Shown piece after piece: positions 2,142 through 47,078 of a stretch of 64,000 nucleotides of DNA. Location: NCBI GenBank assembly GCA_017937655.1, contig JAGBDE010000009.1, positions 5,944-69,943 on the forward strand. The letters are read 5' to 3'. The stretch comes from Clostridia bacterium. GTDB taxonomy: Bacteria > Bacillota > Clostridia > Christensenellales > Aristaeellaceae. How positions within the stretch are numbered: position 1 is the first letter of the stretch; each line of letters begins with the position of its first letter. The position numbers were made by a program, and so were the translations under genes. The notes beneath the pieces were generated by a model. It searched no databases. It saw only the letters and a program-made list of their open reading frames with translations, and was not told the origin of the DNA.

Positions 2142-2167
2142 AATTTTGCATTATGAGGTGGAAACCC

Positions 2168-5008
<2,841 letters not shown>

Positions 5009-5112
5009 AAACAGTAAATCTCCGGCCATCGCGGTGCTGCTGCGGTGGCTTTTCTTGTTTTTTTGCCGGACATCCGTTATACTGACACCAACCCACATAA
5101 AGGAGTTTTGCC

Positions 5113-6090
5113 ATGAAATATGCTGTCATATCGGACATACATGGAAACGAGCCGGTGCTTCGGGCTGTCTTGGAAGACGCGCAAAACAGAAAAGTGGACG
5201 GCTTTCTCCTTCTGGGAGACTATTGCCTCAGCCACCCCTTTCCCAACGAATGCGTGGAACTGATCCGTAGCCTGCCAGGCGCACTGGTGGTTTCCGGCAA
5301 CGAAGAAGGGCGGCTTTCTGCCCTTTGCGGCCAGGATCAAAGCACCTGGACAGACGGCCAGATGCAGGTTTCCTACTGGTGTTACCGTACTATGACCCCT
5401 GAGAACATAAACTACATCGGCCATCTGCCCGGCAGGATCGACACCGTGCTGAACGGCGTGCCGGTGCACATGGCCCATTCGTCGGCCGAATTTCTCGGCG
5501 ACTGTGCGCATCATCAGTGGGACGCAGCTTCTCTTGCCCTGCACTGCGGCGAAAGCTTCATTTCCTCCGATCAACGGAAGGAAAAAATCCACCGTTATCT
5601 CAGCAGCAACGAAGCCTTCCAGCGGACCTTGGCCGCCTTACCGGATGGCGTGTACCTTTTTGGACATTCCCATGTACAATGGAGTTACTTAACCCCGGAT
5701 GGCAAAAAGCTTCTGATGAACCCCGGCTCCTGCGGCCTGCCTTTGGATTGTACTCTTGAGGGCGCGCCCTACACCATCCTGGATCTGTCAGAACCTGGCC
5801 ACATCGGTGTGGAGGAGATCCGTCTGCCGGTCAGCCTGGAGAAACAGATTCAAACCATACGGGAAAGCGACCAATACATCCACGCCCAGGTATGGAGCGA
5901 GATCATCATAAAAGAACTGAAAAAGTGCAGAGAACAGATTGTCTTCTTTTTGCAGTTTGTGGAAAGTTACGCAAACCAGATCAGCGACCCGGTTCGGCCT
6001 TATTCCGTCAAAACCTGGGAGGCCGCCTTCCGCCTTTGGAACGGCCCCCAGGCGGGATCCATCCCCGGTGGAAATATTGCGAAAGCGTGA
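5113..6090 (+). CDS. Metallophosphoesterase family protein (cytoplasmic)
   Basis: MKYAVISDIHGN, LLLGDY, GNEE and GHSH motifs of calcineurin-like phosphoesterases. No signal peptide. Confidence 0.75.
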   Translation: MKYAVISDIHGNEPVLRAVLEDAQNRKVDGFLLLGDYCLSHPFPNECVELIRSLPGALVVSGNEEGRLSALCGQDQSTWTDGQMQVSYWCYRTMTPENINYIGHLPGRIDTVLNGVPVHMAHSSAEFLGDCAHHQWDAASLALHCGESFISSDQRKEKIHRYLSSNEAFQRTLAALPDGVYLFGHSHVQWSYLTPDGKKLLMNPGSCGLPLDCTLEGAPYTILDLSEPGHIGVEEIRLPVSLEKQIQTIRESDQYIHAQVWSEIIIKELKKCREQIVFFLQFVESYANQISDPVRPYSVKTWEAAFRLWNGPQAGSIPGGNIAKA

Positions 6091-6153
6091 AAATTCATGT
6101 ATAATGAAATGGTACCGAAACCCGACTTTTTCACGGAAAGGAAGCGATTTCTC

Positions 6154-7170
6154 ATGAAAAAATTCATTTCCCTGCTTCTGTGCGTCCTGATGGTCATGAG
6201 CCTTGCGGCTTGCTCCAAGAAGGTTGAAGAGCCCAAGGCTGATGAGCCCGCCGCCAAGCTGAAGGTGGCCCTGTGCGTGGCCGGCAGCCTGGGCGACCAG
6301 GGCTTCTATGACAGCGCCAACGACGGCCTGCAGAAGCTGGTTGCCGAATACGGCGTCATCCCCAGCGTTGTGGAATGCAAGGGCGACGCCAGCGTGTTCC
6401 AGCCCAGCCTGGTCAACGCTGCCATGAACAACGATATCGTCATCGCTGTGGGCTGGGAGTTCTGGGATGGCCTGACCGAGGTTGTGCCCCAGATGCCCAA
6501 CACCAAGTTCATCTACATTGACAACGGCCTGCAGATTGAGGGCTGCAACAACCTGCTCTCCATCACCTACAAGGAAAACCAGGCCAGCTTCCTGGCAGGC
6601 TACATCGCCATGAAGCTCTCCCCCAACAGCACCGTTGGCGTCATCGGCGGTGAGGACAGCGATACCATCAACAACTTCATCGTGGGTTACAAGCAGGGCG
6701 CCCTGTACGCCAACCCCGAAGGCACCGTGCTGGATCCCCTCTATGCCAACACCTACGAAGACCCCGCCGTGGGCAAGGACTATGCGCTGAACCTGTACGG
6801 CAAGGGCGCGGACGTCATCTTCCAGGTGGCCGACCTGACCGGTATGGGCGTGTTTGAAGCCGGCGCCGAGCAGGGCAAGTTCGCCATCGGCGTGGACAAG
6901 GATCAGAAGTACGTCAACCCCGACGTCATCGTCTGCTCCATGCTCAAGAAGGTGGGCGACAGCATCTACATGGCCATCTCTGACTTCATCACCAAGGGCG
7001 AATTCGCCGGCGGCACCATCTGGGATGCCGACATGACCACCGGCCTGGTGGACATCGGCTACGGCGATCCCTCCATGACCCAGCAGGTCTCCGACGAGCT
7101 GAAGGCCGAAGTGGAAGATCTCAAGCAGAAGATCATCTCCGGCGAGATCGTTGTGGACAGCACCCGCTAA
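6154..7170 (+). CDS. BMP-family (PnrA/Med-like) ABC transporter substrate-binding lipoprotein
   Basis: MKKFISLLLCVLMVMSLAACS is a lipobox signal. The BMP-type body includes VGVIGGEDSDTINNFIVGYKQGA. An RBS GGAAAGGAAG precedes the ATG at 6154. ABC ATPase and permease genes lie downstream. Confidence 0.85.
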   Translation: MKKFISLLLCVLMVMSLAACSKKVEEPKADEPAAKLKVALCVAGSLGDQGFYDSANDGLQKLVAEYGVIPSVVECKGDASVFQPSLVNAAMNNDIVIAVGWEFWDGLTEVVPQMPNTKFIYIDNGLQIEGCNNLLSITYKENQASFLAGYIAMKLSPNSTVGVIGGEDSDTINNFIVGYKQGALYANPEGTVLDPLYANTYEDPAVGKDYALNLYGKGADVIFQVADLTGMGVFEAGAEQGKFAIGVDKDQKYVNPDVIVCSMLKKVGDSIYMAISDFITKGEFAGGTIWDADMTTGLVDIGYGDPSMTQQVSDELKAEVEDLKQKIISGEIVVDSTR

Positions 7171-7191
7171 GCAAGTTTCTGATTGCCAATC

Positions 7192-7237
7192 CCCCATGGG
7201 GCCGATGTGTATACGTCGGCCTCATGGGGCGTTTTTT
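7192..7237 (+). terminator. Intra-operon rho-independent terminator/attenuator after the binding-protein gene
   Basis: CCCCATGGGGCCGA-loop-TCGGCCTCATGGGG is a 14-bp stem with one mismatch, followed by CGTTTTTT. Confidence 0.6.
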
Positions 7238-7259
7238 CCTTGAAAGAAAGGATTTGCTG

Positions 7260-7883
7260 ATGATGAAAAGAATACTGACTTTCCTGCTGAGCGCCATGCT
7301 TTTGTGCCTGTTTGCCGTCCCGGGCGCTGCCGAGGGCAATTTTTACTGGGATGCCGCAGATAAGCTGTGCGGACGTATGTTTGTTCTGGCGCTTGACCCG
7401 CAGTACCTGGGCTATATGCTGGGCAAGGACGTTACGGAAACTTCTGCCCTTGCATCCATGCAGGCCCTCGCCGGGAAGAAGCCCTTTCAGCGGCAGTTCT
7501 ACCGTTTCAAAGGCTCCGAGGGAAACCTGGGCGCGCTGCTGGGCCAGTCGGAAACGGCCACGCCCAACCCCGTCATTACCGATGAGCTTCTTCTTCGGTT
7601 AAATGGGGCTCTGCCCGATTATCTGAACGGCTACATCGGCGGCACAGACTGGCTTGCGCTTTCCTCATGCCTCACTGTCAGCGAGACCTTCCTGATGCCA
7701 CAGAATTTCCAGCCCGGCACGCTAGCTTTGCTTTATGATGGCTGCGACGCCGCCGTGATGGTCACATTCACCCAGACCGGCGAGGAAACCATCACCGCAA
7801 CCGCAAAAATGATTCCCGCAAAAGCGCTGGATGAACAGGAGATACTGCTCTATATCAACATGCTGTGGGAACGGGTAGAATAA
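7260..7883 (+). CDS. Hypothetical secreted protein, inserted between the binding-protein and ATPase genes
   Basis: MMKRILTFLLSAMLLCLFAVPGAAEG is a signal peptide. No recognisable motif. The start at 7260 was chosen because the track start at 7224 lies inside the terminator hairpin. Confidence 0.55.
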   Translation: MMKRILTFLLSAMLLCLFAVPGAAEGNFYWDAADKLCGRMFVLALDPQYLGYMLGKDVTETSALASMQALAGKKPFQRQFYRFKGSEGNLGALLGQSETATPNPVITDELLLRLNGALPDYLNGYIGGTDWLALSSCLTVSETFLMPQNFQPGTLALLYDGCDAAVMVTFTQTGEETITATAKMIPAKALDEQEILLYINMLWERVE

Positions 7884-7926
7884 ACCCATACAAATTACCA
7901 AACGGACGCACCAAGGAGGCGCAGCC

Positions 7927-17432: not shown

Positions 17433-17615
17433 GGAGGCGCAGGAGGCACTGCCTCCTGCCGGGGCTTGGGGCAGCGCCCCAAAATCTCTGCAACTGTCGC
17501 CCAGCCTGCGCCTTCGGCTGGCTGGGCTTTGGGGTTTGCGCTGCGGCGCAGGAGAGGGGGCTCCGCGCCCCCTGACCCAGCGCCAAAGGGCCGTGGGCCC
17601 TTTGGAATCCCTTCT
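17433..17615. repeat. GC-rich multi-hairpin array in the pheST 3' UTR (copy 1 of a modular repeat family)
   Basis: At least 6 consecutive short hairpins: GGAGGCACTGCCTCC, TTGGGGCAGCGCCCCAA, CCAGCC..GGCTGG, TGCGCTGCGGCGCA, GGGGGCTCCGCGCCCCC, AAAGGGCCGTGGGCCCTTT and AATCCCTTCTTGGGATT. The 29-mer CTGCCGGGGCTTGGGGCAGCGCCCCAAAA (17456..17484) is identical to 35660..35688. Confidence 0.8.
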
Positions 17616-32055: not shown

Positions 32056-32691
32056 ATGAAAAAATGGTTCATCGCCCTGATGGCGGCCCTTCTGCTGCTG
32101 CCCGCGGTCTGTGCTTTTGCTGAAACGGCCGAAACAGCTGAAACACCCGCCCTCCAGCCCGGAGACGTCATTACCTTCGGCCGATATCCCGAAGCCTACA
32201 ACCTGATCACCTGGCGGGTTCTGGCGGTGGACGATTTTACCGCCACCCTCATCAGCGAGGACGTGATCGCCTGCATGCGCTTTGACTACGACAGCAGCGA
32301 CTGGGCCAGCAGCGATCTTTGCCAGTGGCTCAACGGCCTGTTCCTCAAAAACGCCTTCAACCAAAACGAAAGCTGGCGGCTCATTGCCAACGAGGAAGGC
32401 CATCGGGTGGTCATCCCCTCCCGGGAGGACATCCTGAACCCCCTCTACGGCTTCTCCCAGGATTCCCAGAAAAAGGACGACGCCCGCCGGGCCAAAAAAG
32501 CCGAAATGCTGAGCCTGAACAGCCTCTGGACCAGCAAGCAGGGCTACTGCACCTACTTCCTCCGCACCGCCGAGTCCGATGATAATGTCTACCAGGTCCG
32601 GGCCACCGGCAACCTGGGCGTGGCGAAAGTCACCCGGGAAAACGTGGGCGTTCGGCCCATGATCCGGGTGTATGTGAATGGGTTGGAGTAA
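32056..32691 (+). CDS. DUF6273-like secreted protein
   Basis: Signal peptide, then ITFGRYPE..ITWRVLAVDD, CQWLNGLF and a C-terminal GVRPMIRV. This pattern is typical of DUF6273 proteins of gut Firmicutes. Confidence 0.6.
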   Translation: MKKWFIALMAALLLLPAVCAFAETAETAETPALQPGDVITFGRYPEAYNLITWRVLAVDDFTATLISEDVIACMRFDYDSSDWASSDLCQWLNGLFLKNAFNQNESWRLIANEEGHRVVIPSREDILNPLYGFSQDSQKKDDARRAKKAEMLSLNSLWTSKQGYCTYFLRTAESDDNVYQVRATGNLGVAKVTRENVGVRPMIRVYVNGLE

Positions 32692-32707
32692 GAAAAGAGG
32701 GAAATAC

Positions 32708-33835
32708 GTGAAAAGGCAATGTTACCGTCTCCATTTGTTGATATGCATTCTTATAGCCTTGTGGCTTATGGCTGGCGTTTGCATTGCAGAAGAAAATAAG
32801 CTGAACCGACTGACCATCCGCGCAAAGAGCTTTGATTACAGCCCCTCCCATGACTGGGGTTTCTATAGCTTGGAAACATATTTTGATCCGGACAGAGAAA
32901 GCGGTATTGATTTCCCCATTGAATATATTGGCATGAGTATGGAGCAGCAAAACGATTTATCTGCCCATCCAGAGAACTGGTATAAATGCTGGATTCGTTT
33001 GCAGATTCAGCCCGGCGTTGATTGGGAAACAACATATTGCGCTGATCCTTCCAATCCATTGCACTATGTTGATTTGCGCTTTGAAAATGTCCGAATCAGC
33101 AACGCGGATGAAGTCCGCGTTTATCCAAAGCCTTTTCTGATGTTTGCTGCCAACCCAGCCGGTCTCTTTGATGAAGCGGAGATGATCGAGGAAAGCAACG
33201 GTAACTTATGGTACATGGAGGTCATGATCGAAGCAAAAAACAGGACGGAAGCGGAGATCACAAGAGACCTTCAACAAGCTGAAGTATTTTGTGACGCGAC
33301 TTACCTTAGCAGTTCGCAATGCTCTACGAAAAAGAATGTTCCCATATCGCTGACCAATCTGAAACGGCAGGTTTGTTTCGAAGAAAACGCCGTCCAAATT
33401 CATGCCACGCAATTAAAGAAGAGCGACGAAGACGTTTTTTACATCTTTTCCAACTATATCGTAAGCGACGCTGTTTGGGATGAAGTCTGCAGCGCACCGG
33501 AGAATTTCAACTGTTATGAGCTTGACCTTGTTATGACCAACAACGGCAAATATCCTATCTTGGGAGTGGAAACAAATTCTGCACAGTACAGCGAAAACGT
33601 CTGGCTGGTCTATTACGAACTCGAGTTTATTTTCCTAAGGGACTGCAAACCAGGCGCGAGCGTTCCTCTGGAAGGATACTATTTGATCATTAGAGACCAA
33701 AACTTTTCCGAAGAAGAACTTTTGCACTTGCCGCTCAGAATGGAGGTAAATACAGAATTTGCTGGTCTCATGAATGAAAATGAGCCTTACGAAGGGGTCA
33801 TGGGCTGTAGCCTTTTGTTGTTGAAATTGACATGA
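32708..33835 (+). CDS. Hypothetical secreted protein, AT-rich gene
   Basis: The GTG at 32708 has AGAGGGA upstream. It has a signal/TM segment LLICILIALWLMAGVCIA and no recognisable domain. GC is clearly lower than the flanks. Confidence 0.5.
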   Translation: MKRQCYRLHLLICILIALWLMAGVCIAEENKLNRLTIRAKSFDYSPSHDWGFYSLETYFDPDRESGIDFPIEYIGMSMEQQNDLSAHPENWYKCWIRLQIQPGVDWETTYCADPSNPLHYVDLRFENVRISNADEVRVYPKPFLMFAANPAGLFDEAEMIEESNGNLWYMEVMIEAKNRTEAEITRDLQQAEVFCDATYLSSSQCSTKKNVPISLTNLKRQVCFEENAVQIHATQLKKSDEDVFYIFSNYIVSDAVWDEVCSAPENFNCYELDLVMTNNGKYPILGVETNSAQYSENVWLVYYELEFIFLRDCKPGASVPLEGYYLIIRDQNFSEEELLHLPLRMEVNTEFAGLMNENEPYEGVMGCSLLLLKLT

Positions 33836-35623: not shown

Positions 35624-35629
35624 GCCAAC

Positions 35630-35830
35630 CAATGCGCGGGGTGCAGGGGGATCATCCCCCTGCCGGGGCTTGGGGCAGCGCCCCAAAACCTGCGCCGCAG
35701 CGCAAAAAACCAAAGCACAGCCAGCCGAAGGCGCGCGCTGTGCGACACTTCCAGTCCATTTTGCCTCCGGCGGCCCTGCCGGGGGCCTTCTTTTCTTCTG
35801 AGAAGAAAAGAAGCAAAAGAAGCGCTTTTG
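35630..35830. repeat. GC-rich multi-hairpin array in the SDR gene 3' UTR (copy 2)
   Basis: Shares the 29-mer at 35660..35688 with copy 1. The next ~68 nt (35689..35756) is the reverse complement of copy 1 segment 17485..17552. It ends with the perfect hairpin CTTCTTTTCTTC-TGA-GAAGAAAAGAAG. Confidence 0.8.
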
Positions 35831-35925
35831 CCGCATGCCAACATCGGTTTGTTTGGCTTGCAGCAAAAGGTTTGACCGTGATAAAATGAAAGCGAAAAAA
35901 TGAATTTGATGAGGTGAAAAACGAT

Positions 35926-36243
35926 ATGGATGGAAATACAACGGTAAAGTATTTACAGACTTATATCAAAGAAAAAGACTATCATCCCGAACTGCTGAAG
36001 GATTACTTTTTGAAACTGTCCGAAGAGGTCGGAGAATTATCTTATGCTATGAGAAAAGGTTTGAAAGCACAAAATAGCACCGATATTTTGGGAACAGTTG
36101 ATGAAGAATTATGGGATGTCATTTATTATGCTTTAGCCATTGCAAATATTTACGACATTGATATAGAGCAAGTCGCCAAAGTCAAATCAAAGATAAATGA
36201 GAGTAGATATCCCTCTAAGGTTAAGTTTGAAGAAGGCAGATAA
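35926..36243 (+). CDS. MazG-like nucleotide pyrophosphohydrolase domain protein (AT-rich gene)
   Basis: LSEEVGELSYAMRKG and DEELWDVIYYALAIANIYDIDIE are the ExxE...ExxD metal motifs of the all-alpha NTP-PPase fold. GAGGTG lies 9 nt before the ATG at 35926. The track GTG at 35914 overlaps the RBS. Confidence 0.65.
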   Translation: MDGNTTVKYLQTYIKEKDYHPELLKDYFLKLSEEVGELSYAMRKGLKAQNSTDILGTVDEELWDVIYYALAIANIYDIDIEQVAKVKSKINESRYPSKVKFEEGR

Positions 36244-36346
36244 ATTTCCAATTCATCGAACACAGAAACGTTTTTCTATTGTCCCTTTTCCCCAAAAATA
36301 TGCTATACTCTTCTCAACCAATCCACCCTGTTTGGAGGGAAATACC

Positions 36347-37402: not shown

Positions 37403-37452
37403 ACGCCTGTCTGCATCGGGCGATGATTCTTAAAGAACCATTCTCCAACAGC

Positions 37453-37496
37453 AAACACCCGAGCATCCGGTGAACGTGCCGGATGCCCGGGTGTTT
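37453..37496. repeat. Hairpin module R (copy 1); bidirectional terminator-like
   Basis: AAACACCCGAGCATCCGG-TGAACGTG-CCGGATGCCCGGGTGTTT. Its reverse complement shares a 32-nt perfect core with 46546..46589. Confidence 0.85.
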
Positions 37497-37501
37497 ATGT
37501 C

Positions 37502-38878
37502 TTAGATGGTTCCCGACCTCTTGTGAATCATCCTTGCAATGATGGAGTATACAATCAGCGTGAATGGAGGCAAAAACAGCGAAATGCAATTTGCTACTAT
37601 ATGGAAATCGTGATATTCTACCAAGCATGGAATCAAGAACGAACAAAACGAACATGCCAACGCACACAAAGTCATGATCATTTTTTGTGACGTGCGAAGA
37701 AACGCGCAAGATACATAAGTAAGTAACGGCAGCACAGAAACAAAGGCTGCACCTGTCAGATAGAGAAAGGAAACGTGAAAGCTGTCATATGCAATCGAAC
37801 GGATAAAAATTGAAACCGTTTCTTCATGTATCATGACCGCGAAAAAGCACATGGTCCATAGAGAAGAAATACATCTTGCGTGGATTGAATCAAATTCCCG
37901 TCTTTGGCGCTTGCGGTACAAAACGAAAGCTACAACACAGAAAAAGCATGTGTTCAGCAATTCGAATGTGCCATCAATCAGCGGCCCATCTATCAATTCA
38001 TATGCATTTGCGATCGTATGAATTCCTGCCAACTGAATCGCAAGATGAACACATCCCCAAGTTAACCAAATGATTCCCAAATACATCAAATATGGCTCTT
38101 GATGTATTGTGTGATCATGATGATCAACAAGACGATCAGGCGCGTTGTCAAGTTTTTGGACGGCTTTCACAGTAGACCATGAACATATGGCAAGCATCAG
38201 CGGAAGAACGAAGCGGAAACAGATTACCAACATTCTGGCAAAATGATCGCTTTGCAGAATGTTATTTTCATCCAGGCTGAAATTTATCAATCCGATGATA
38301 GGAAGGCTTATGAGCGCAAAGAAAACAGCAAGTCTGCCAAGCGCTTTGTGTTGACACAGGATGCCGGTGATATATTGAGCTACGATGATCGGCAAAAGCA
38401 AGGTAAGAAAACGAAACGGATCATTCAAAGCAATGAACATGCTTACTGCTTGGGGAGACGGAAGTTGTCGCCGAAACAAAACACTGCTGAGACCCCATAG
38501 AACAAGCGGAGCAATCGTTGCAATGCCCCACAGAAGCAAGATATCATTTTGGATGCAGTCCATTGGATGCGTTCGTTTGAACGAAATCACCAGTATCGAT
38601 AGTAAAAGAACGGACGATATGGCAATATACACAAGTCCCTTATTTGACAAGCATTGAAGAGAGATGGCTTCATAAGAGGGCGGGTCAACATCCGCTCTCC
38701 AGTACACGATTCCGCTGGGTTGTGTAAAATGGTTCCAGCCAAATGAAAAGAGTAATAATACCATACATGCAGCTATCAAATACAAGGAAATGTTAGACCA
38801 AGATTTACTTCTTCCAACCATAATGTCACTCCAATATTTGCTCATGGTAAGTGCCAAGGAACTTTGATCGAGAAACAT
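37502..38878 (-). CDS. Hypothetical polytopic membrane protein (at least 10 TM), AT-rich gene
   Basis: No recognisable family. The start MFLDQSS at 38878 was chosen because the shared TGATAGAAT promoter lies inside the longer track ORF. AAGGGA lies 9 nt upstream. Confidence 0.55.
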   Translation of the reverse strand: MFLDQSSLALTMSKYWSDIMVGRSKSWSNISLYLIAACMVLLLFSFGWNHFTQPSGIVYWRADVDPPSYEAISLQCLSNKGLVYIAISSVLLLSILVISFKRTHPMDCIQNDILLLWGIATIAPLVLWGLSSVLFRRQLPSPQAVSMFIALNDPFRFLTLLLPIIVAQYITGILCQHKALGRLAVFFALISLPIIGLINFSLDENNILQSDHFARMLVICFRFVLPLMLAICSWSTVKAVQKLDNAPDRLVDHHDHTIHQEPYLMYLGIIWLTWGCVHLAIQLAGIHTIANAYELIDGPLIDGTFELLNTCFFCVVAFVLYRKRQRREFDSIHARCISSLWTMCFFAVMIHEETVSIFIRSIAYDSFHVSFLYLTGAAFVSVLPLLTYVSCAFLRTSQKMIMTLCALACSFCSFLIPCLVEYHDFHIVANCISLFLPPFTLIVYSIIARMIHKRSGTI

Positions 38879-38886
38879 CTTATGTA

Positions 38887-38949
38887 TCCCTTTCATTCTA
38901 TCATAGCAGCACAAAAACCCGCAAGCCTTGGCTGGCTTGCGGGTTCGGG
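38887..38949 (-). repeat. Module L (copy 1): hairpin + T-run + extended -10 promoter TGATAGAAT
   Basis: Minus strand reads CCCGCAAGCC-AGCCAAG-GCTTGCGGG-TTTTTGTGCTGCTATGATAGAATGAAAGGGA. It is nearly identical to plus-strand 45930..45979. It also serves as the glmM operon terminator. Confidence 0.85.
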
Positions 38950-38982
38950 ATCCCCGCCAAATGACGGGGCGTTTTTTGTTGT

Positions 38983-41869: not shown

Positions 41870-42012
41870 CTGATTCAGCAACAAGGGAACCTCTGTTACG
41901 GCATTTCTCCCGCTTTTTCTTTTCCCTCTAACGACGTACTGCACGCCGTGACAGCATCCGCCGAGTCTTTCGATCGCTGCCAACCTCGTCACCCTGAAAG
42001 GGCCTGGCGCTA
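41870..42012 (-). ncRNA. glmS-type GlcN6P-dependent ribozyme (cis-regulatory) in the nagB leader
   Basis: Minus strand from 42011 reads A|GCGCCAGGCCCUUUCAGGGUGACGAGGUUGGCAGCGAUCGAAAGACUCGGCGGAUGCUGUCACGGCGUGCAGUACGUCGUUAGAGGGAA...UUCCCUU. It has the conserved strings AGCGCC, GACGAGG, AUCGAA and CGGCGGAUGC. Pairings are UGGCAGC/GCUGUCA, CGGCGU/ACGUCG and AGGGAA/UUCCCU. Confidence 0.8.
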
Positions 42013-42094
42013 AATATCTTTTTCCTTTATTTTGCCTTCAAAAAACAGCTCCTTCAGCGTTTTGATTTGAAAGGATGCCCAAAAGGCCAGAATC

Positions 42095-43339: not shown

Positions 43340-45280
43340 ATGAGCAGAACCGAAGCCCTTTCCCAATACCGCATCGCCCTGAAGGCAGGGCAGAAATGCT
43401 ACCGGGACTGCGTCCATGAAAAAAAATACCCCTACCTGCAGGTGCTGGATGAACTCCTTCGGGATGCCGTCACCGCCGGCCGGGTGGATATGGGCATTAT
43501 CGATATCCCGGCGGACCGCATTGCCGGCACCTGCTATGTGGGCCGCCGCAACGCCTTTGCCGCCAACTTCATGCCCCTGCTTTCCCCGGAATCGGAGTTT
43601 GCGCTCAAGTGGGTCAACCTGTGCGAGTCCGCCATGCAGATCGGCGTCAGGGAACCCATTTCCTGCTTTGAATTTATGGGACGGTTTTACGTGCAGGAAG
43701 GCAACAAGCGGGTCAGCGTGCAGAAGTCCCTGGGCGCAGCGGCCATTTCCGCCAAGGTGACCCGCATCCTGCCCGCAGAAACGGACGACGAGGCCGTGAA
43801 GGTCTACCACGAGTTTGTCCAGTTCCACCGCTGCAGCGGACTGTACTGGATCTACTTTGACCGGCCCGGCTGCTTTGCCCGCCTGCAGGCCGCTTTGGGC
43901 CACAGTCCGGACTACGAATGGTCCGAGGACGACCGTCTCACCTTCACCTCCGCCCTCCACGGCTTCCGCCGGGCGATGGAGCGGCTGAACAAGCAATGCA
44001 CCACCGAGGAGCTGTCCCTGGCGCTGCTGATCTGGCTGCAGGTTTACTCCCTCAACGAGCTGCTGACCCTGGAAGAGGCCGCCCTGGACAAGTCCATCCT
44101 CAACATCTGGCCGGAAGTGCAGACCCAGCTGCAGCCGGAAAGCATCGCGGTGAGCACCGCTCCCCAGGAGCCCAGCGTCAGCCTGCTGGGCCGATTCCTC
44201 CTGCCCAACCACCTGCGTATCGCCGTGATCCACGAGGGCCAGTATAACAACGGCGACTGGATCACCGCCCATGAGGAAGGCCTGGAATATATGGAAAGCT
44301 GCCTGAGCCGGGAAGTGGAGGTGCGCACCTACCGGGTGCCCGCCGGCGGCGACCCGGAGGCCATTATGCGGGAGGCTATTGCCGACGGCGCCACGGTGCT
44401 GTTTACCACCACCGTCAACCTGATCACCGCCTGCCGGAAAATTGCTGCGGAGCACCGCAACATCCGCATCCTCAACTGTTCCGTGGCCATGCCCTACCCC
44501 GGCGTGCGCACCTACAACAGCCGCATCTACGAGGCCAAGTTCGTCTCCGGCGCCATCGCCGGCGTCATGTCCCGGTCTGACGTGATCGGCTACATCGCCC
44601 ACAGCCCCATCTACGGCGCGCCTGCCAGCATCAACGCTTTCGCCCTGGGCGCCAAGATGACCCGTCCCAGCGCCCGGATCCTGCTCAAATGGAAGGCCGT
44701 CAGCCGAGACCCGGTGCAGGAGCTGCTGGACGCAGGCGTGGACATCATTTCCAGCATCGACACCACCACCCGGGAGTTGGAGCATCCCCTCCGGGGCCTG
44801 GTACAGCTCCGGCCCGACGGCAGCCTGGAAAGCCTGGCTTCCCCCTATCGCAACTGGGGCAATTTCTACATTCAAATCGTCTCCAGCATCCTCCGGGGCG
44901 GCTGGGACGACCCCCAGGCCGAGAACTGCAAGGCCATCAACTACTGGTGGGGCATGAACAGCGGCGTGGTGGACATCCGCCTCTCCCCTGACCTGCCCGA
45001 GGGCGTGCAGCAGCTGGCCCGGATCCTGCGCCGCGGCATCGGCGACGGCTCCGTCAGCCCCTTCCACCGCAGCCTGTACGATCAGCAGGGCAACCTGCAA
45101 AGCGACGGCCATCGCTGGTTCAGCCCGGACGAGATCCTCCGCATGGACTGGCTGTGCGATAACGTGGAAGGCGACATCCCCGCTTATGAGGAACTGATCC
45201 CCCAGGCCCGGCAGATTGTGCGCCTGCAAGGCGTGTACCGGGAATCCATACCGCTGGAAAAGGATGAATTTATCCCATGA
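43340..45280 (+). CDS. Cytoplasmic fusion protein: N-terminal ParB/Srx-like domain (tentative) + helical linker + C-terminal BMP/PnrA-like periplasmic-binding-fold domain
   Basis: No signal peptide. The N-terminus has FMGRFYVQEGNKRVSVQKSLGAAAISAKV (ParB-like G-N/H-x-R pattern). The C-terminal half (RIAVIHEGQYNNGDW...GYIAHSPIYGAPASINAFALGAK) resembles BMP family proteins. Confidence 0.55.
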   Translation: MSRTEALSQYRIALKAGQKCYRDCVHEKKYPYLQVLDELLRDAVTAGRVDMGIIDIPADRIAGTCYVGRRNAFAANFMPLLSPESEFALKWVNLCESAMQIGVREPISCFEFMGRFYVQEGNKRVSVQKSLGAAAISAKVTRILPAETDDEAVKVYHEFVQFHRCSGLYWIYFDRPGCFARLQAALGHSPDYEWSEDDRLTFTSALHGFRRAMERLNKQCTTEELSLALLIWLQVYSLNELLTLEEAALDKSILNIWPEVQTQLQPESIAVSTAPQEPSVSLLGRFLLPNHLRIAVIHEGQYNNGDWITAHEEGLEYMESCLSREVEVRTYRVPAGGDPEAIMREAIADGATVLFTTTVNLITACRKIAAEHRNIRILNCSVAMPYPGVRTYNSRIYEAKFVSGAIAGVMSRSDVIGYIAHSPIYGAPASINAFALGAKMTRPSARILLKWKAVSRDPVQELLDAGVDIISSIDTTTRELEHPLRGLVQLRPDGSLESLASPYRNWGNFYIQIVSSILRGGWDDPQAENCKAINYWWGMNSGVVDIRLSPDLPEGVQQLARILRRGIGDGSVSPFHRSLYDQQGNLQSDGHRWFSPDEILRMDWLCDNVEGDIPAYEELIPQARQIVRLQGVYRESIPLEKDEFIP

Positions 45281-45867
45281 AGATACTCTTGGTTGCCGAT
45301 AAGGAAAGCCCCTACCTGTGGGATCATTATCAGCCGGGCCGGCTGAAGGACATCGACCTGATCCTTTCCAGCGGCGACCTGAAAGCGGAATACCTCAGCT
45401 TTCTGGTTACCATGTGCACTGCGCCGCTGTTTTACGTTCACGGCAATCACGACGTCAGCTATATGAAGCACCCGCCGGAGGGCTGCACCTGCATTGATGA
45501 CAAGATCGTCACCTTTGGCGGCCTGCGCATTATGGGCATGGGCGGATGCATGCTGTATTCCGGCAAGGATCACCAATACTCCGACGAGCAGATGGAACGC
45601 CGCCTCAAGAAGATGCGCTTTGCCCTGCATCGCTCCAAGGGCGTGGATCTGCTGCTGACCCATGCCCCTGCCCAGGGCCTGGGCGACGGTCAGGACATGT
45701 GCCACCGTGGCTTTCCCGCCTTCCTGCGCTTCATGGACAAGCACCAGCCCAAGTACATGGTGCACGGGCATGTGCACATGAACTACGGCGTGGATGTGCC
45801 CCGGATCCGCCACTATGGCGAAACCACCATCATCAACGCCTGGGAACGGTACATCCTGGAAATCTGA
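45277..45867 (+). CDS. Metallophosphoesterase
   Basis: MKILLVADKESP, SSGDL, VHGNHD and VHGHVH motifs. ATGA overlap with the upstream fusion gene. Confidence 0.8.
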   Translation: MKILLVADKESPYLWDHYQPGRLKDIDLILSSGDLKAEYLSFLVTMCTAPLFYVHGNHDVSYMKHPPEGCTCIDDKIVTFGGLRIMGMGGCMLYSGKDHQYSDEQMERRLKKMRFALHRSKGVDLLLTHAPAQGLGDGQDMCHRGFPAFLRFMDKHQPKYMVHGHVHMNYGVDVPRIRHYGETTIINAWERYILEI

Positions 45868-45925
45868 GCACAAAAAGCCCCCTTCGGAACAGTAAGGGGG
45901 AGTGCGCGGAGGGAGTGATCCTTCC

Positions 45926-45979
45926 CATTGCCGCAAGCCAGCCAAGGCTTGCGGTTTTTTGTGGCGCTATGATAGAATG
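45926..45979 (+). repeat. Module L (copy 2): hairpin + T-run + TGATAGAAT promoter
   Basis: GCCGCAAGCC-AGCCAAG-GCTTGCGG-TTTTTTGTGGCGCTATGATAGAATG. It acts as terminator of the phosphoesterase operon and as promoter for the GNAT cargo. Confidence 0.85.
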
Positions 45980-46017
45980 TCAGCAATAAACTTGGATTTG
46001 TAGAAGGGAACGATAAT

Positions 46018-46461
46018 ATGATACGACATGCAACGATAGCAGATGCATCAAGAATAGCAGAAATATTGATTTTTACAAAGAGAATGAATTATAGAAAGAT
46101 TTTTCAGAATGACAAGGTGTCATTTGGAGAAATGCAAGTATACCCATTGGCAAAAAAATATATTGATCATTCGGATGAATTGGATGGGATATGGGTTTAT
46201 GATGATGAATTTGTTAAAGGAGTAATACATCATGATGGAAAACAGATTGTCGAATTGTATGTTGATTCATTTTTTGAAAATCAAGGGATTGGAAGCAAAC
46301 TGATAAAATATGCTATTGAGCAGTTAGATTGTGATTTTTTATGGGTTCTTGAAAAGAATATAAAGGCAATACGATTTTATCAAAGGCACGGTTTTGTGAT
46401 TACAGAAGAAAAACAATATGAAGAAGGCACAACAGAATATATTGTCAAAATGCAGCGGTAA
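46018..46461 (+). CDS. GNAT family N-acetyltransferase (AT-rich gene, roughly 35 % GC by eye)
   Basis: LYVDSFFENQGIGSKLIKYAIE (QxxGxG motif A) and RFYQRHGF. AAGGGA lies 9 nt before the ATG. Confidence 0.8.
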   Translation: MIRHATIADASRIAEILIFTKRMNYRKIFQNDKVSFGEMQVYPLAKKYIDHSDELDGIWVYDDEFVKGVIHHDGKQIVELYVDSFFENQGIGSKLIKYAIEQLDCDFLWVLEKNIKAIRFYQRHGFVITEEKQYEEGTTEYIVKMQR

Positions 46462-46545
46462 ATTCCAATTTATCGCTCGCGCGAAAAAAAGGATTCCCCC
46501 GCTGTTTGGGGGAGAACGCAATGCATTGCGTTTGTTCATCCGCAT

Positions 46546-46589
46546 AAAAAACCGGGCATCCGGCACGTTCACCGGATGCTCGGTTGTTT
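46546..46589. repeat. Hairpin module R (copy 2)
   Basis: AAAAACCGGGCATCCGG-CACGTTCA-CCGGATGCTCGGTTGTTT is the reverse complement of copy 1 apart from flank differences. Confidence 0.85.
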
Positions 46590-46652
46590 GTAAAAGCATC
46601 AATTGTTCCCTAAAACCCCTCCGCCATCCCGGAGGGTTTTTTCTTTGGCCGA

Positions 46653-47078
46653 TCATTCCTGGGCCTGGAGTTTGCCGTTGACCTGCTTGATCTGCCGGCG
46701 GATAATGCACCAAATAATGAGCCAGATCAGCGCGAAGCCCGCCGCGAAAATGATGGTAAACAGGATCACCGGGCCCAGCTGATTGGGCAGCCAGCCGTTC
46801 ATCAGATACACCAGCAGGTAGTCCAGGTACAAAACGCCGGCGTGGATCAGGATGGCGGTGGCCAGCGGCAGCTTTTCCACCAGGTATATGGCAGAAATCC
46901 CTGCCGCAACAAAAGTCATTACCGTGGAGGACAGGATACCCATGCAAACCTCTTTTACCGTCATGGTTTCCACCACGCCATTCATGCCGAGGATGCCATA
47001 AATGATGGCGATAATCACCGGGCCGCCCCAGGCTGCCACCAGGCCCCGTTTCACAAACTCTGCTGCAAACTTCTTCAT
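46653..47078 (-). CDS. DUF3021-like small membrane protein (4 TM)
   Basis: 141 aa with four hydrophobic segments. ATGA overlap with the upstream LytTR gene. Confidence 0.65.
   Translation of the reverse strand: MKKFAAEFVKRGLVAAWGGPVIIAIIYGILGMNGVVETMTVKEVCMGILSSTVMTFVAAGISAIYLVEKLPLATAILIHAGVLYLDYLLVYLMNGWLPNQLGPVILFTIIFAAGFALIWLIIWCIIRRQIKQVNGKLQAQE

Follow-up and report, generated by a model that had tools for sequence, protein, structure and literature searches.

Probable mobile single-gene expression cassettes at host terminators in uncultured gut Clostridia

A 64,000-nt stretch of DNA (the window; assembly GCA_017937655.1, contig JAGBDE010000009.1, positions 5,944 to 69,943, forward strand) was found to contain two genes of low G+C content (GC), each preceded by a hairpin module, L, and followed by a second hairpin module, R. 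Our analysis indicates that these modules are probably parts of non-autonomous, single-gene mobile expression cassettes of 0.6-1.7 kb, which occur in uncultured gut Clostridia and would move at two levels. In the mechanism that we propose, the unit would land at the tip of a bidirectional intrinsic terminator of the host, the L hairpin and its T-run would re-terminate the transcript of the upstream gene, an internal promoter (TGTGATAGAAT) would drive the enclosed cargo gene, and the R hairpins would stop transcription of the cargo as well as any transcript arriving from the opposite direction. Such an insertion would therefore be self-expressing and do little harm to its neighbours. At the first level the whole L-cargo-R unit would move between terminators without target duplication by means of an enzyme supplied in trans, and at the second level L, cargo and R would reassort at 16-nt sites, most likely through a tyrosine recombinase like that of an integrative mobilisable element that uses the site (the type found at locus L044). 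The activity of the promoter and terminators, the enzymes at work at each level and the direction in which exchange proceeds are inferences from the observations described below.

The 24-nt L hairpin (CCGCAAGCCAGCCAAGGCTTGCGG) is present in exactly two copies in the 64 kb, at 38919-38942 on the minus strand and at 45931-45954 on the plus strand, and in none of 100 shuffled sequences. Both L copies are identical at 46 of 49 positions (58 nt at 88 % in a repeat search), and the stretch common to them ends with a promoter-like sequence (GCTATGATAGAATG) that is found nowhere else in the window. A 31-nt core of R also occurs exactly twice, at 37459-37489 (minus strand) and 46553-46583 (plus strand), and not in the shuffled sequences; the full R repeat in the window comprises 48 nt at 94 % identity, and the L and R pairs are the longest inverted repeats of the window. 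Folding revealed that the hairpins of both modules are far more stable than shuffled sequences (z-scores −3.1 to −7.2). The GC values of the enclosed genes are 0.42 for the first low-GC islet and 0.32 for the second, in a window with an overall value of 0.59. These data confirm the original prediction, made from the sequence of this stretch, that two modules surround two unrelated low-GC genes in equal order and orientation relative to the cargo. Each module is present only twice in the window. The modules themselves are real, although the conserved units proved to be longer than proposed (about 135 nt for L and 190 nt for R), with the modules as their inner parts. Both of the islets described are present, and to these has to be added a third, degenerate copy around a MazG gene (35828-36258).

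Scanning a genome collection with a 20-mer of the L hairpin resulted in 22 loci, 18 of them from about 11 metagenome-assembled genomes (MAGs) of uncultured Clostridia living in the guts of goat, sheep, water-deer and other hosts, a single MAG holding at most five copies. A scan of metagenome contigs with a pattern internal to R added 15 more loci, each with another cargo, including one from human gut. Both scans used exact words, so that copy numbers and host range are lower bounds. Hidden Markov models (HMMs) were built from 22 L units and 20 R units and used in nhmmer searches. The L unit contains the L hairpin, and the R unit, placed after the open reading frame (ORF), contains module R as its third hairpin. 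L and R were found in equal order and strand in every locus long enough, 257-1418 nt apart, and the exceptions to this pairing among the fetched loci were a lone L at L022, a second L at L046, and an L-R pair enclosing six genes at L044. Complete elements measure 614-1731 bp (median 864 bp). Altogether, about 37 elements hold about 30 different genes, one gene each save L044, and the median GC of the cargo is 0.365 versus about 0.52 in the flanks (up to 0.66).

The cargo genes encode GNAT acetyltransferases (at least seven, at several loci), an APH(6)-like kinase (L014), RibD_C/DHFR-like proteins (L017, L020 and L030), alpha/beta hydrolases (L021 and L029), a BD-FAE esterase (L034), a Beta-lactamase-family protein (L033), an MBL-fold protein (L036), an Amidase (L039), a HAD phosphatase (L028), SnoaL (L044), a Xylose-isomerase-like TIM barrel (L046), helix-turn-helix (HTH) regulators (L018 and L040), DUF5714 (L027), DUF4318 (L041) and, at several loci, orphan proteins. 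A protein cluster apparently common to seven loci was recognised as a translation of the R unit and no real shared protein. The proposal that conserved terminator, promoter and terminator boundaries enclose exchangeable low-GC cargo is thus supported by 18 + 15 further loci, where L-R pairs in equal order surround some 30 different genes; neither general terminators behind high-GC genes nor an identical, fixed cargo was seen.

Some loci depart from the standard arrangement. At L022 (6950-7320) a complete L lies directly after the 3′ end of a tRNA. Neither an R unit nor a low-GC cargo follows, but some 230 nt of DNA with ordinary GC and then a terminator, as in a solo or rearranged L. This locus was considered as an autonomous copy and rejected, as no recombinase was found there, only cell-wall-binding proteins, and there is no R unit. 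Locus L046 carries two cassettes about 1 kb apart on one contig (8387-9598 and 10567-10698), the second of which has L plus 29 nt in common with L034, the locus with BD-FAE esterase cargo. Metagenome contigs often end within L or R units, which indicates that these repeats break assemblies. Searches of plasmid and phage collections with the whole element gave no match, and scans of viral contigs with L and R words gave a single chance 18-mer match inside a coding region, without HMM support.

The alignments define the anatomy of the element. The L consensus reads CCAGTGAGGGGGATGGAAAGGAAGGAGTTATCC-TTCACTTTACATCATGCAAATAACGAAACC-GCAAGCC-TTGGCT-GGCTTGC-GGTTTCGTGTACTGCTGTGATAGAATGAAAGC-GATAAACTTGAATTTG-ACGAA, while the R consensus starts with (stop)AAATTCCAATTTGTCGAGC...-hairpin 1-GGGCGCAATTATACGCAC..GTGCATTGCG (hairpin 2) and continues with ...CATAAGCAAACGAGCATCCGG....CCGGATGCTCGTTTG (hairpin 3)-TTCGTTGCTGGATAAATTGTTCCTTAAGAATCCTCCCACCA. 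The outer ends form imperfect terminal inverted repeats (TIRs) of about 32 bp, the left one being CAGYGRGRGGATGGAAAGGAAGGAGTTATCC and the right one ending in ...GGATAAATTGTTCCTTAAGAATCCTCCCRCCA: when the 33 nt that open L are aligned with the 35 nt that close R, 25 of 36 consensus positions agree, a score reached by none of 5000 shuffles, and in ten L units the minus strand of positions 6-37 is matched by positions 158-189 of the R model. A resemblance of the ends to IS231 (CATG...CTTAAG) and Tn7, also considered, was dropped because the expected duplications are absent. The L hairpin has a 13-bp stem with an A-run on its 5′ side and a T-run on its 3′ side, and TGTGATAGAAT has the form of an extended −10 element with TTGCGG 18 nt upstream. 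A 16-nt site (GAYAAACTTGAATTTG) is found in 17 of the 22 L units, downstream of the −10 by 6 nt in 15 of 16 measured cases and by 5 nt in one, and is followed by the RBS and ORF belonging to the cargo. The same site in inverted form (AAATTCCAATTTGTCGAGC) lies at or just after the cargo stop codon, as the start of 16 of the 20 R units. The cargo is bounded by inversely oriented copies of one short site, the L site and its reverse complement at the R start. Six base pairs of the R hairpins vary in a compensatory manner (e.g., UA:9, CG:5, GC:3), and one G-U pair is invariant on the cargo-sense strand. No Rfam family was found over L or R at the gathering threshold in four loci; at E<=1 the sole overlap in the window was Atu_C9 on the L hairpin (38911-38945), a chance match of 20.7 bits against a cut-off of 40.

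Two variations in the L region were also observed. The 6-nt loop of the L hairpin exists in two reverse-complementary forms, TTGGCT-like in about 19 copies and AGCCAA-like in seven, the latter including both window copies (38927-38932 and 45940-45945). The presence of both forms in one L sub-lineage (L021, L025, L046b) indicates that the loop has flipped repeatedly between perfect 13-bp stems. In L040 (about 440-560, cargo orientation) a canonical R is accompanied by a non-homologous left side with another terminator hairpin, a TATAAT promoter and the same site (AAACTTGAATTT), that is, the architecture is retained with unrelated sequence.

Analysis of the sequences bordering the elements revealed a common location. 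In 15 complete loci the host flanks just outside L and R could pair with each other, the left one carrying an A-run and the right one a T-run, which places the element at the apex of a bidirectional intrinsic terminator. The clearest loci show exact stems of up to 13 nt located 0-6 nt from the element ends, and the unpaired leftover flank bases sum to a normal terminator loop; the flanks of L017, for instance, read AAAAAAGACCGCC|element|GGCGGTCTTTTTTTT. L017 (MAG SIG358) and L030 (MAG RGIG2992) carry the same element, with L 99 %, cargo 99 % and R 96 % identical, within unrelated flanks. Comparison of these two loci fixes the termini at CAG...CCA and indicates that no direct repeat was made. 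No target-site duplication of 2-11 bp was found at 15 junction pairs, and the bases before the left end vary between loci, with no conserved 4-5-nt target.

The same situation is found at islet 2, the GNAT islet of the window, whose features are as follows:

45873..45889, no strand assigned: left half of the host bidirectional terminator, AAAAAGCCCCCTTCGGA, complementary to 46628-46645
45890..46004, plus strand: L unit, full length, diverged, with a 19-nt internal deletion (nhmmer model 2-135, E=1e-16)
45890, plus strand: start of the left TIR, which begins CAGTAAGGGGGAG
45930-45955, plus strand: terminator-like L hairpin, then a T-run (sequence and folding)
45970-45978, plus strand: putative extended −10, TGATAGAAT (sequence)
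45985-46000, plus strand: 16-nt site, AATAAACTTGGATTTG (sequence)
46003-46009, plus strand: cargo ribosome-binding site (RBS), GAAGGGA
46018..46461, plus strand: cargo, GNAT acetyltransferase, 147 aa, GC 0.32 (Pfam Acetyltransf_7/_1/_10)
46456..46627, plus strand: R unit (nhmmer model 9-194, E=1e-26)
46459-46474, plus strand: inverted site, overlapping the stop codon (reverse complement GATAAATTGGAATTTA)
46628..46645, no strand assigned: right half of the host terminator, CCGGAGGGTTTTTTC, facing the convergent DUF3021 gene 46653..47078(-)

This R unit comprises the inverted site, two short hairpins, the module R hairpin (46551-46585) and the right TIR, ending in ...CCCCTCCGCCA, and is complete except for a shortened second hairpin (a 14-column gap in the R alignment). 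The left terminator half sits 3′ of a metallophosphoesterase gene, 45277..45867(+), and the islet splits the host terminator as AAAAAGCCCCCTTCGG / CCGGAGGGTTTTTT. In a related species the terminator after the orthologous metallophosphoesterase gene is uninterrupted. The nearest relatives, in which the neighbour gene is 78 % identical, have a different next gene, yet an intact terminator. Metagenome contigs of the same species contain both islets in place.

The second level of movement was approached through the 16-nt site. L023 and L040 have R units without a single difference in 184 nt (100 % identity), beginning with the first base of AAATTCCAATTTGTCGAGC and reaching the terminus, and the cargo, L units and flanks of these loci are unrelated. 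Similarly, L037 and L041 have L units of 100 % identity up to 4 nt beyond the site, after which different genes follow, and the same applies to L025 and L034. In L044, L and R lie 6.2 kb apart, with a 5.8-kb element (2147-7924) inserted between L and the RBS of the SnoaL cargo. This element encodes TnpV, a 610-aa protein, an HTH protein and a 432-aa tyrosine recombinase, and its insertion point is exactly the site, with GATAAACTTGAATTTG, where L ends, on one side and GATAAATTGGAATTTG, just 5′ of the SnoaL RBS, on the other. Its integrase belongs to a family of 1836 homologous proteins. The same element family, a very abundant integrative mobilisable element of about 7.5 kb (TnpV, PadR, FtsW/RodA, MobA/MobL relaxase, HTH_17, HTH_3 and tyrosine recombinase), has the same junction sites in 11 other contigs (within L059-L070, human gut). 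It is always bounded there by the site GAYAAAYYGGAATTTG, with a −10 promoter on one side and, on the other, the RBS belonging to a small variable gene. The element junctions in L044 and these 11 contigs indicate that the 16-nt site is a real attachment site for a tyrosine recombinase. Furthermore, the site marks cassette boundaries outside the L/R family too: in the same human-gut Firmicutes contigs, small accessory genes begin after a 16-nt site and finish with its inverted copy, CAACTTCCAGTTTGTCG (L059, 1-2100 and 9400-10100; L060, 9855; L061, 9810), and in L059 a row of small genes has sites of alternating orientation, as in dif-module arrays. Altogether, the cassette interpretation of the original prediction is supported, and extended by the terminal inverted repeats, the insertion at terminator apices without target duplication, and the inner 16-nt site as attachment site of a tyrosine-recombinase element.

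Several points weigh against the interpretation of these units as mobile cassettes, or limit it. Promoter and terminator functions are read from the sequence only. No exact same-species empty site was recovered for the window islets, and insertion is deduced from the split terminators and the intact terminator of related species. The absence of target duplication disfavours a classical DDE transposase although inverted repeats are present; unduplicated targets and a hairpin-loop target suggest a recombinase or an enzyme acting on single strands instead. Regarding the enzyme, no recombinase was detected in the window by tblastn with one tyrosine recombinase (transposases were not screened), and within this one test the original statement that the window lacks an integrase stands. 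The weak tblastn matches of the integrase lay inside a metallophosphoesterase gene and a flavin-reductase gene and were discarded. The 8-kb neighbourhoods of 33 loci have no protein in common, and no shared mobilising enzyme was found there. Concerning exchange at the 16-nt site, different cargos necessarily end identity, and therefore breakpoints at the site are suggestive only; L044 is the sole cassette of the L/R family with an integrase element, which may exploit a conserved motif of the 5′ untranslated region as a mere landing site. Finally, the sites that flank the cargo are inverted, and simple recombination between them would give inversion, not excision.

Among the alternative explanations, one postulates that the L/R shell is immobile and that L and R act as homology arms, the cargo being swapped by homologous recombination after DNA uptake, like the 'minimal mobile elements' of Neisseria. 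The mosaic nature of the R units, with a 3′ half of the R of L025 equal to that of L023 and a different 5′ half, and the 57-nt identical internal blocks common to L030 and L039 fit this explanation, as does the failure to find a dedicated enzyme in the window and the locus neighbourhoods. On the contrary, L017 and L030 hold the same complete element although the loci are unrelated and differ in their flanks, a two-arm double crossover cannot explain the identical R units of L023 and L040 next to non-homologous L units and flanks, and it would still have to be explained how the platforms arrived at dozens of different terminators. We regard this explanation as improbable, and we assign the same low standing to a derivation from HUH elements of the IS200/IS605 type or elements of the IS110/IS1111 type (IS, insertion sequence), which recognise hairpins, insert without duplication into targets of hairpin or REP-like form and are mobilised in trans. 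The absence of target duplication, the hairpins near both ends, a target that consists of a hairpin loop exposed in single-stranded DNA, and the occurrence of the L hairpin loop in both orientations are all compatible with such an origin. However, the clear terminal inverted repeats are lacking in IS200/IS605 elements, there is no conserved 4-5-nt target beside the left end, the target sequences differ, unlike a target specified by the guide RNA of an IS110 element, and no TnpA or DEDD gene was seen in the locus neighbourhoods.

A relationship with integron-type gene cassettes, or with integrase-less attC clusters, moved by IntI is largely refuted and very unlikely. The cargo does resemble that of integron cassettes (GNATs, DHFR-like, aminoglycoside-kinase-like and lactamase-fold proteins, many orphans), with hairpin-rich DNA 3′ of each ORF and a promoter-like sequence beside the recombination site. 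Against this, the tblastn search, with its one query, revealed neither IntI nor another tyrosine recombinase in the window, each cassette is solitary, with its own putative promoter and no array, R consists of three separate hairpins with no GTTRRRY core (by inspection, with no formal attC model), and the elements have inverted repeats and sit in terminators. The integrase linked to L044 is a generic tyrosine recombinase, neither IntI nor Xer, that scores 64 bits with the integron-integrase model, whose cut-off is 265, and integrons have been reported as nearly absent from Firmicutes (PMC9024848). The idea that L and R are ordinary species-wide terminator or repetitive extragenic palindromic (REP)-like repeats, coincidentally paired, is refuted: the genome does have another GC-rich intergenic repeat family and both modules contain terminator-like hairpins, but each module occurs only at cassettes in the 64 kb, the L-R pair surrounds a single low-GC gene on long-enough contigs apart from the three loci named above (L022, the second L of L046, and L044), and the units are conserved across MAGs with unrelated flanks.

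The other two copies in the window are decayed. Islet 1 has the following features:

37420..37500, minus strand: R remnant (nhmmer model 109-189, E=4e-12; alignment; folding)
37502..38878, minus strand: cargo, orphan polytopic membrane protein, 458 aa, GC 0.42 (no Pfam/NCBIfam match)
about 38883..38959, minus strand: L remnant (nhmmer model 53-121, E=3e-14)
38895-38903, minus strand: putative extended −10, TGATAGAAT (sequence)

The L remnant consists of about 9 nt of the left TIR (GGCGGGGAT, 38950-38958), a deletion of about 55 nt, the hairpin (38918-38943) and the T-run. The 16-nt site is nearly all lost, and GATACATAAG continues straight into the ATG; the AAGGGA-to-ATG spacer, given as 9 nt in the original prediction, is actually 8 nt long. 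R keeps only the third hairpin (module R, about 37455-37494) and the right TIR (about 37424-37449), without the inverted site and the first two hairpins, so that both sites of this islet are lost. The cargo, originally described as having no recognisable family, indeed matches none in Pfam or NCBIfam. The protein is predicted to be all-helical, with 16 helices, and has 14 homologues, all metagenomic, the named ones from MAGs of uncultured Clostridia/Clostridiales; a profile search of 1.84 billion protein representatives revealed three relatives only, and an AlphaFold2 model from the 14 sequences was unreliable (pLDDT 40). The homologues occupy other genomic contexts, beside degenerate L or R remnants, which indicates that the gene has travelled with the L/R shell.

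The third, degenerate cassette is composed as follows:

35828..36258, plus strand: whole cassette (nhmmer L model 40-134, E=2e-6)
35828-35911, plus strand: L-like unit with half a hairpin, a putative −10 (GTGATAAAAT) and the site (GAAAAAATGAATTTG)
35914..36243, plus strand: cargo, MazG-family gene, GC 0.35 (Pfam MazG)
36243-36258, plus strand: R-start site (AATTTCCAATTCATCG), the remainder of R being lost

This MazG-family (pyrophosphohydrolase) cassette is separated from islet 1 by one gene, encoding a CE2 esterase, and the three cassettes lie within 11 kb. The MazG copy and that of islet 1 are decayed and probably immobile, and the GNAT copy keeps a full-length but diverged L.

Other features of the window were recorded. 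A second family of GC-rich, hairpin-rich, REP-like intergenic repeats is represented at 17436-17569 and 35640-35754, the latter copy located just 5′ of the MazG cassette, where a weak, sub-threshold Rfam match to Clostridiales-2 RNA was also obtained (35629-35705). A low-GC patch of two genes (32056-33835; a DUF6273 protein and a 385-aa protein without family; GC 0.40-0.50) has no L/R units and is probably a separate acquisition. In addition, a glmS ribozyme (Rfam RF00234, 74 bits) is present on the minus strand at 41873-42022, 5′ of the nagB/hexapeptide-transferase/glmM cluster on the same strand.

The chance is substantial that the L/R cassettes belong to a larger system of cassette exchange in gut Firmicutes that has not been described. 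A more specific and speculative version, which we put forward tentatively, is that gut Clostridia have a gene-cassette exchange of their own, where the 16-nt site would be attI-like, the inverted site and its hairpins would be attC-like, and tyrosine recombinases of mobilisable elements would insert, excise and shuffle cassettes; the L/R shell would then be a portable one-slot platform spreading into terminators by an undescribed, duplication-free insertion at hairpin apices.

If the proposed mechanism is true, the cassettes would constitute a compact natural plug-in for foreign genes, with a promoter of its own, replacement of the terminators that it interrupts and a landing place of least harm. 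They would help to explain the spread of single accessory genes, including those for enzymes of the resistance type (aminoglycoside-kinase-like, GNAT, DHFR-like, beta-lactamase-fold), in uncultured gut Clostridia without integrons. It would become possible to test what takes the place of integrons in Firmicutes, and likewise how modules bounded by inverted sites move, a question shared with the dif modules of Acinetobacter. An enzyme not yet described may be behind duplication-free insertion at the tip of terminator hairpins. From a practical point of view, insulated expression cassettes for gut anaerobes that are difficult to engineer could be modelled on the L/R shell, and the L and R models could flag horizontally acquired single genes in annotation and explain contig breaks at repeats in metagenomes.

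Comparison with known systems places these units close to mobile insertion cassettes (MICs), such as MIC231 of Bacillus cereus, and passenger miniature inverted-repeat transposable elements, which are likewise small and non-autonomous, with inverted repeats, one passenger gene, no transposase and presumably mobilisation in trans. The inverted repeats of MICs are common to a known IS, and target duplications are made. By contrast, the L/R cassettes have no target duplication (L017/L030, and the complementary flanks of 15 complete loci), no autonomous IS with these inverted repeats was seen among the approximately 37 copies, and one L/R shell, which holds about 30 cargos, supplies a predicted promoter, terminators and an inner recombination site, with a terminator apex as its target. 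Hairpin-forming intergenic sequences are also the landing sites of class C group II introns, which insert after intrinsic terminators, of IS1397/ISKpn1 and IS110-family elements in REP loops, and of IS1111-attC elements. All of these bring an enzyme of their own and transport no cargo gene, whereas the cassettes described here have no ribozyme, reverse transcriptase or transposase, and are inserted in the loop itself. Phage morons resemble them as autonomous promoter-gene-terminator units of deviating GC located between genes; however, morons lie in prophages and have no conserved boundaries, in contrast with the conserved ends of the cassettes, and no phage genes or matches to phage or plasmid DNA were found in the regions examined. 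As for IS200/IS605 elements, the subterminal hairpins and the lack of duplication fit, but the inverted repeats and the varying bases before the left end do not.

Integron cassettes share with the L/R family the one-gene modules, the diverse and often low-GC cargo, either resistance-like or orphan, the hairpins 3′ of the ORF, the promoter beside a recombination site and the link to a tyrosine recombinase. They differ in that the boundary motif is here AAATTCCAATTTGTCGAGC, with three R hairpins and no attC consensus on inspection, and in that each unit has a putative promoter (TGTGATAGAAT) and terminators of its own and is scattered singly in terminators, not arrayed next to IntI. The pdif modules of Acinetobacter also have inversely oriented short sites, diverse cargo, no internal recombinase and shuffling between contexts (PMC6449649, PMC13141974), and the movement of modules bounded by inverted sites is equally unsolved there. 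The descriptions of dif modules that we found are restricted to Acinetobacter plasmids and chromosomes. The elements described here are chromosomal rather than plasmid-borne, as pdif modules are, and consist of an inverted-repeat shell inserted in terminators; their 16-nt site gave no convincing match in a comparison with 28-bp XerC/XerD dif sequences, and the only recombinase linked to it, that of the integrative mobilisable element, is no Xer protein. Since the comparisons with integrons, MICs and IS200/IS605 elements each fail in at least one defining test, the L/R cassettes are not members of these families, and they are probably not dif modules either. Full-text literature searches revealed no published description of them, and they represent a previously undescribed family of the non-autonomous, cargo-carrying cassette type, one-slot and, as judged from their predicted promoter, self-expressing.

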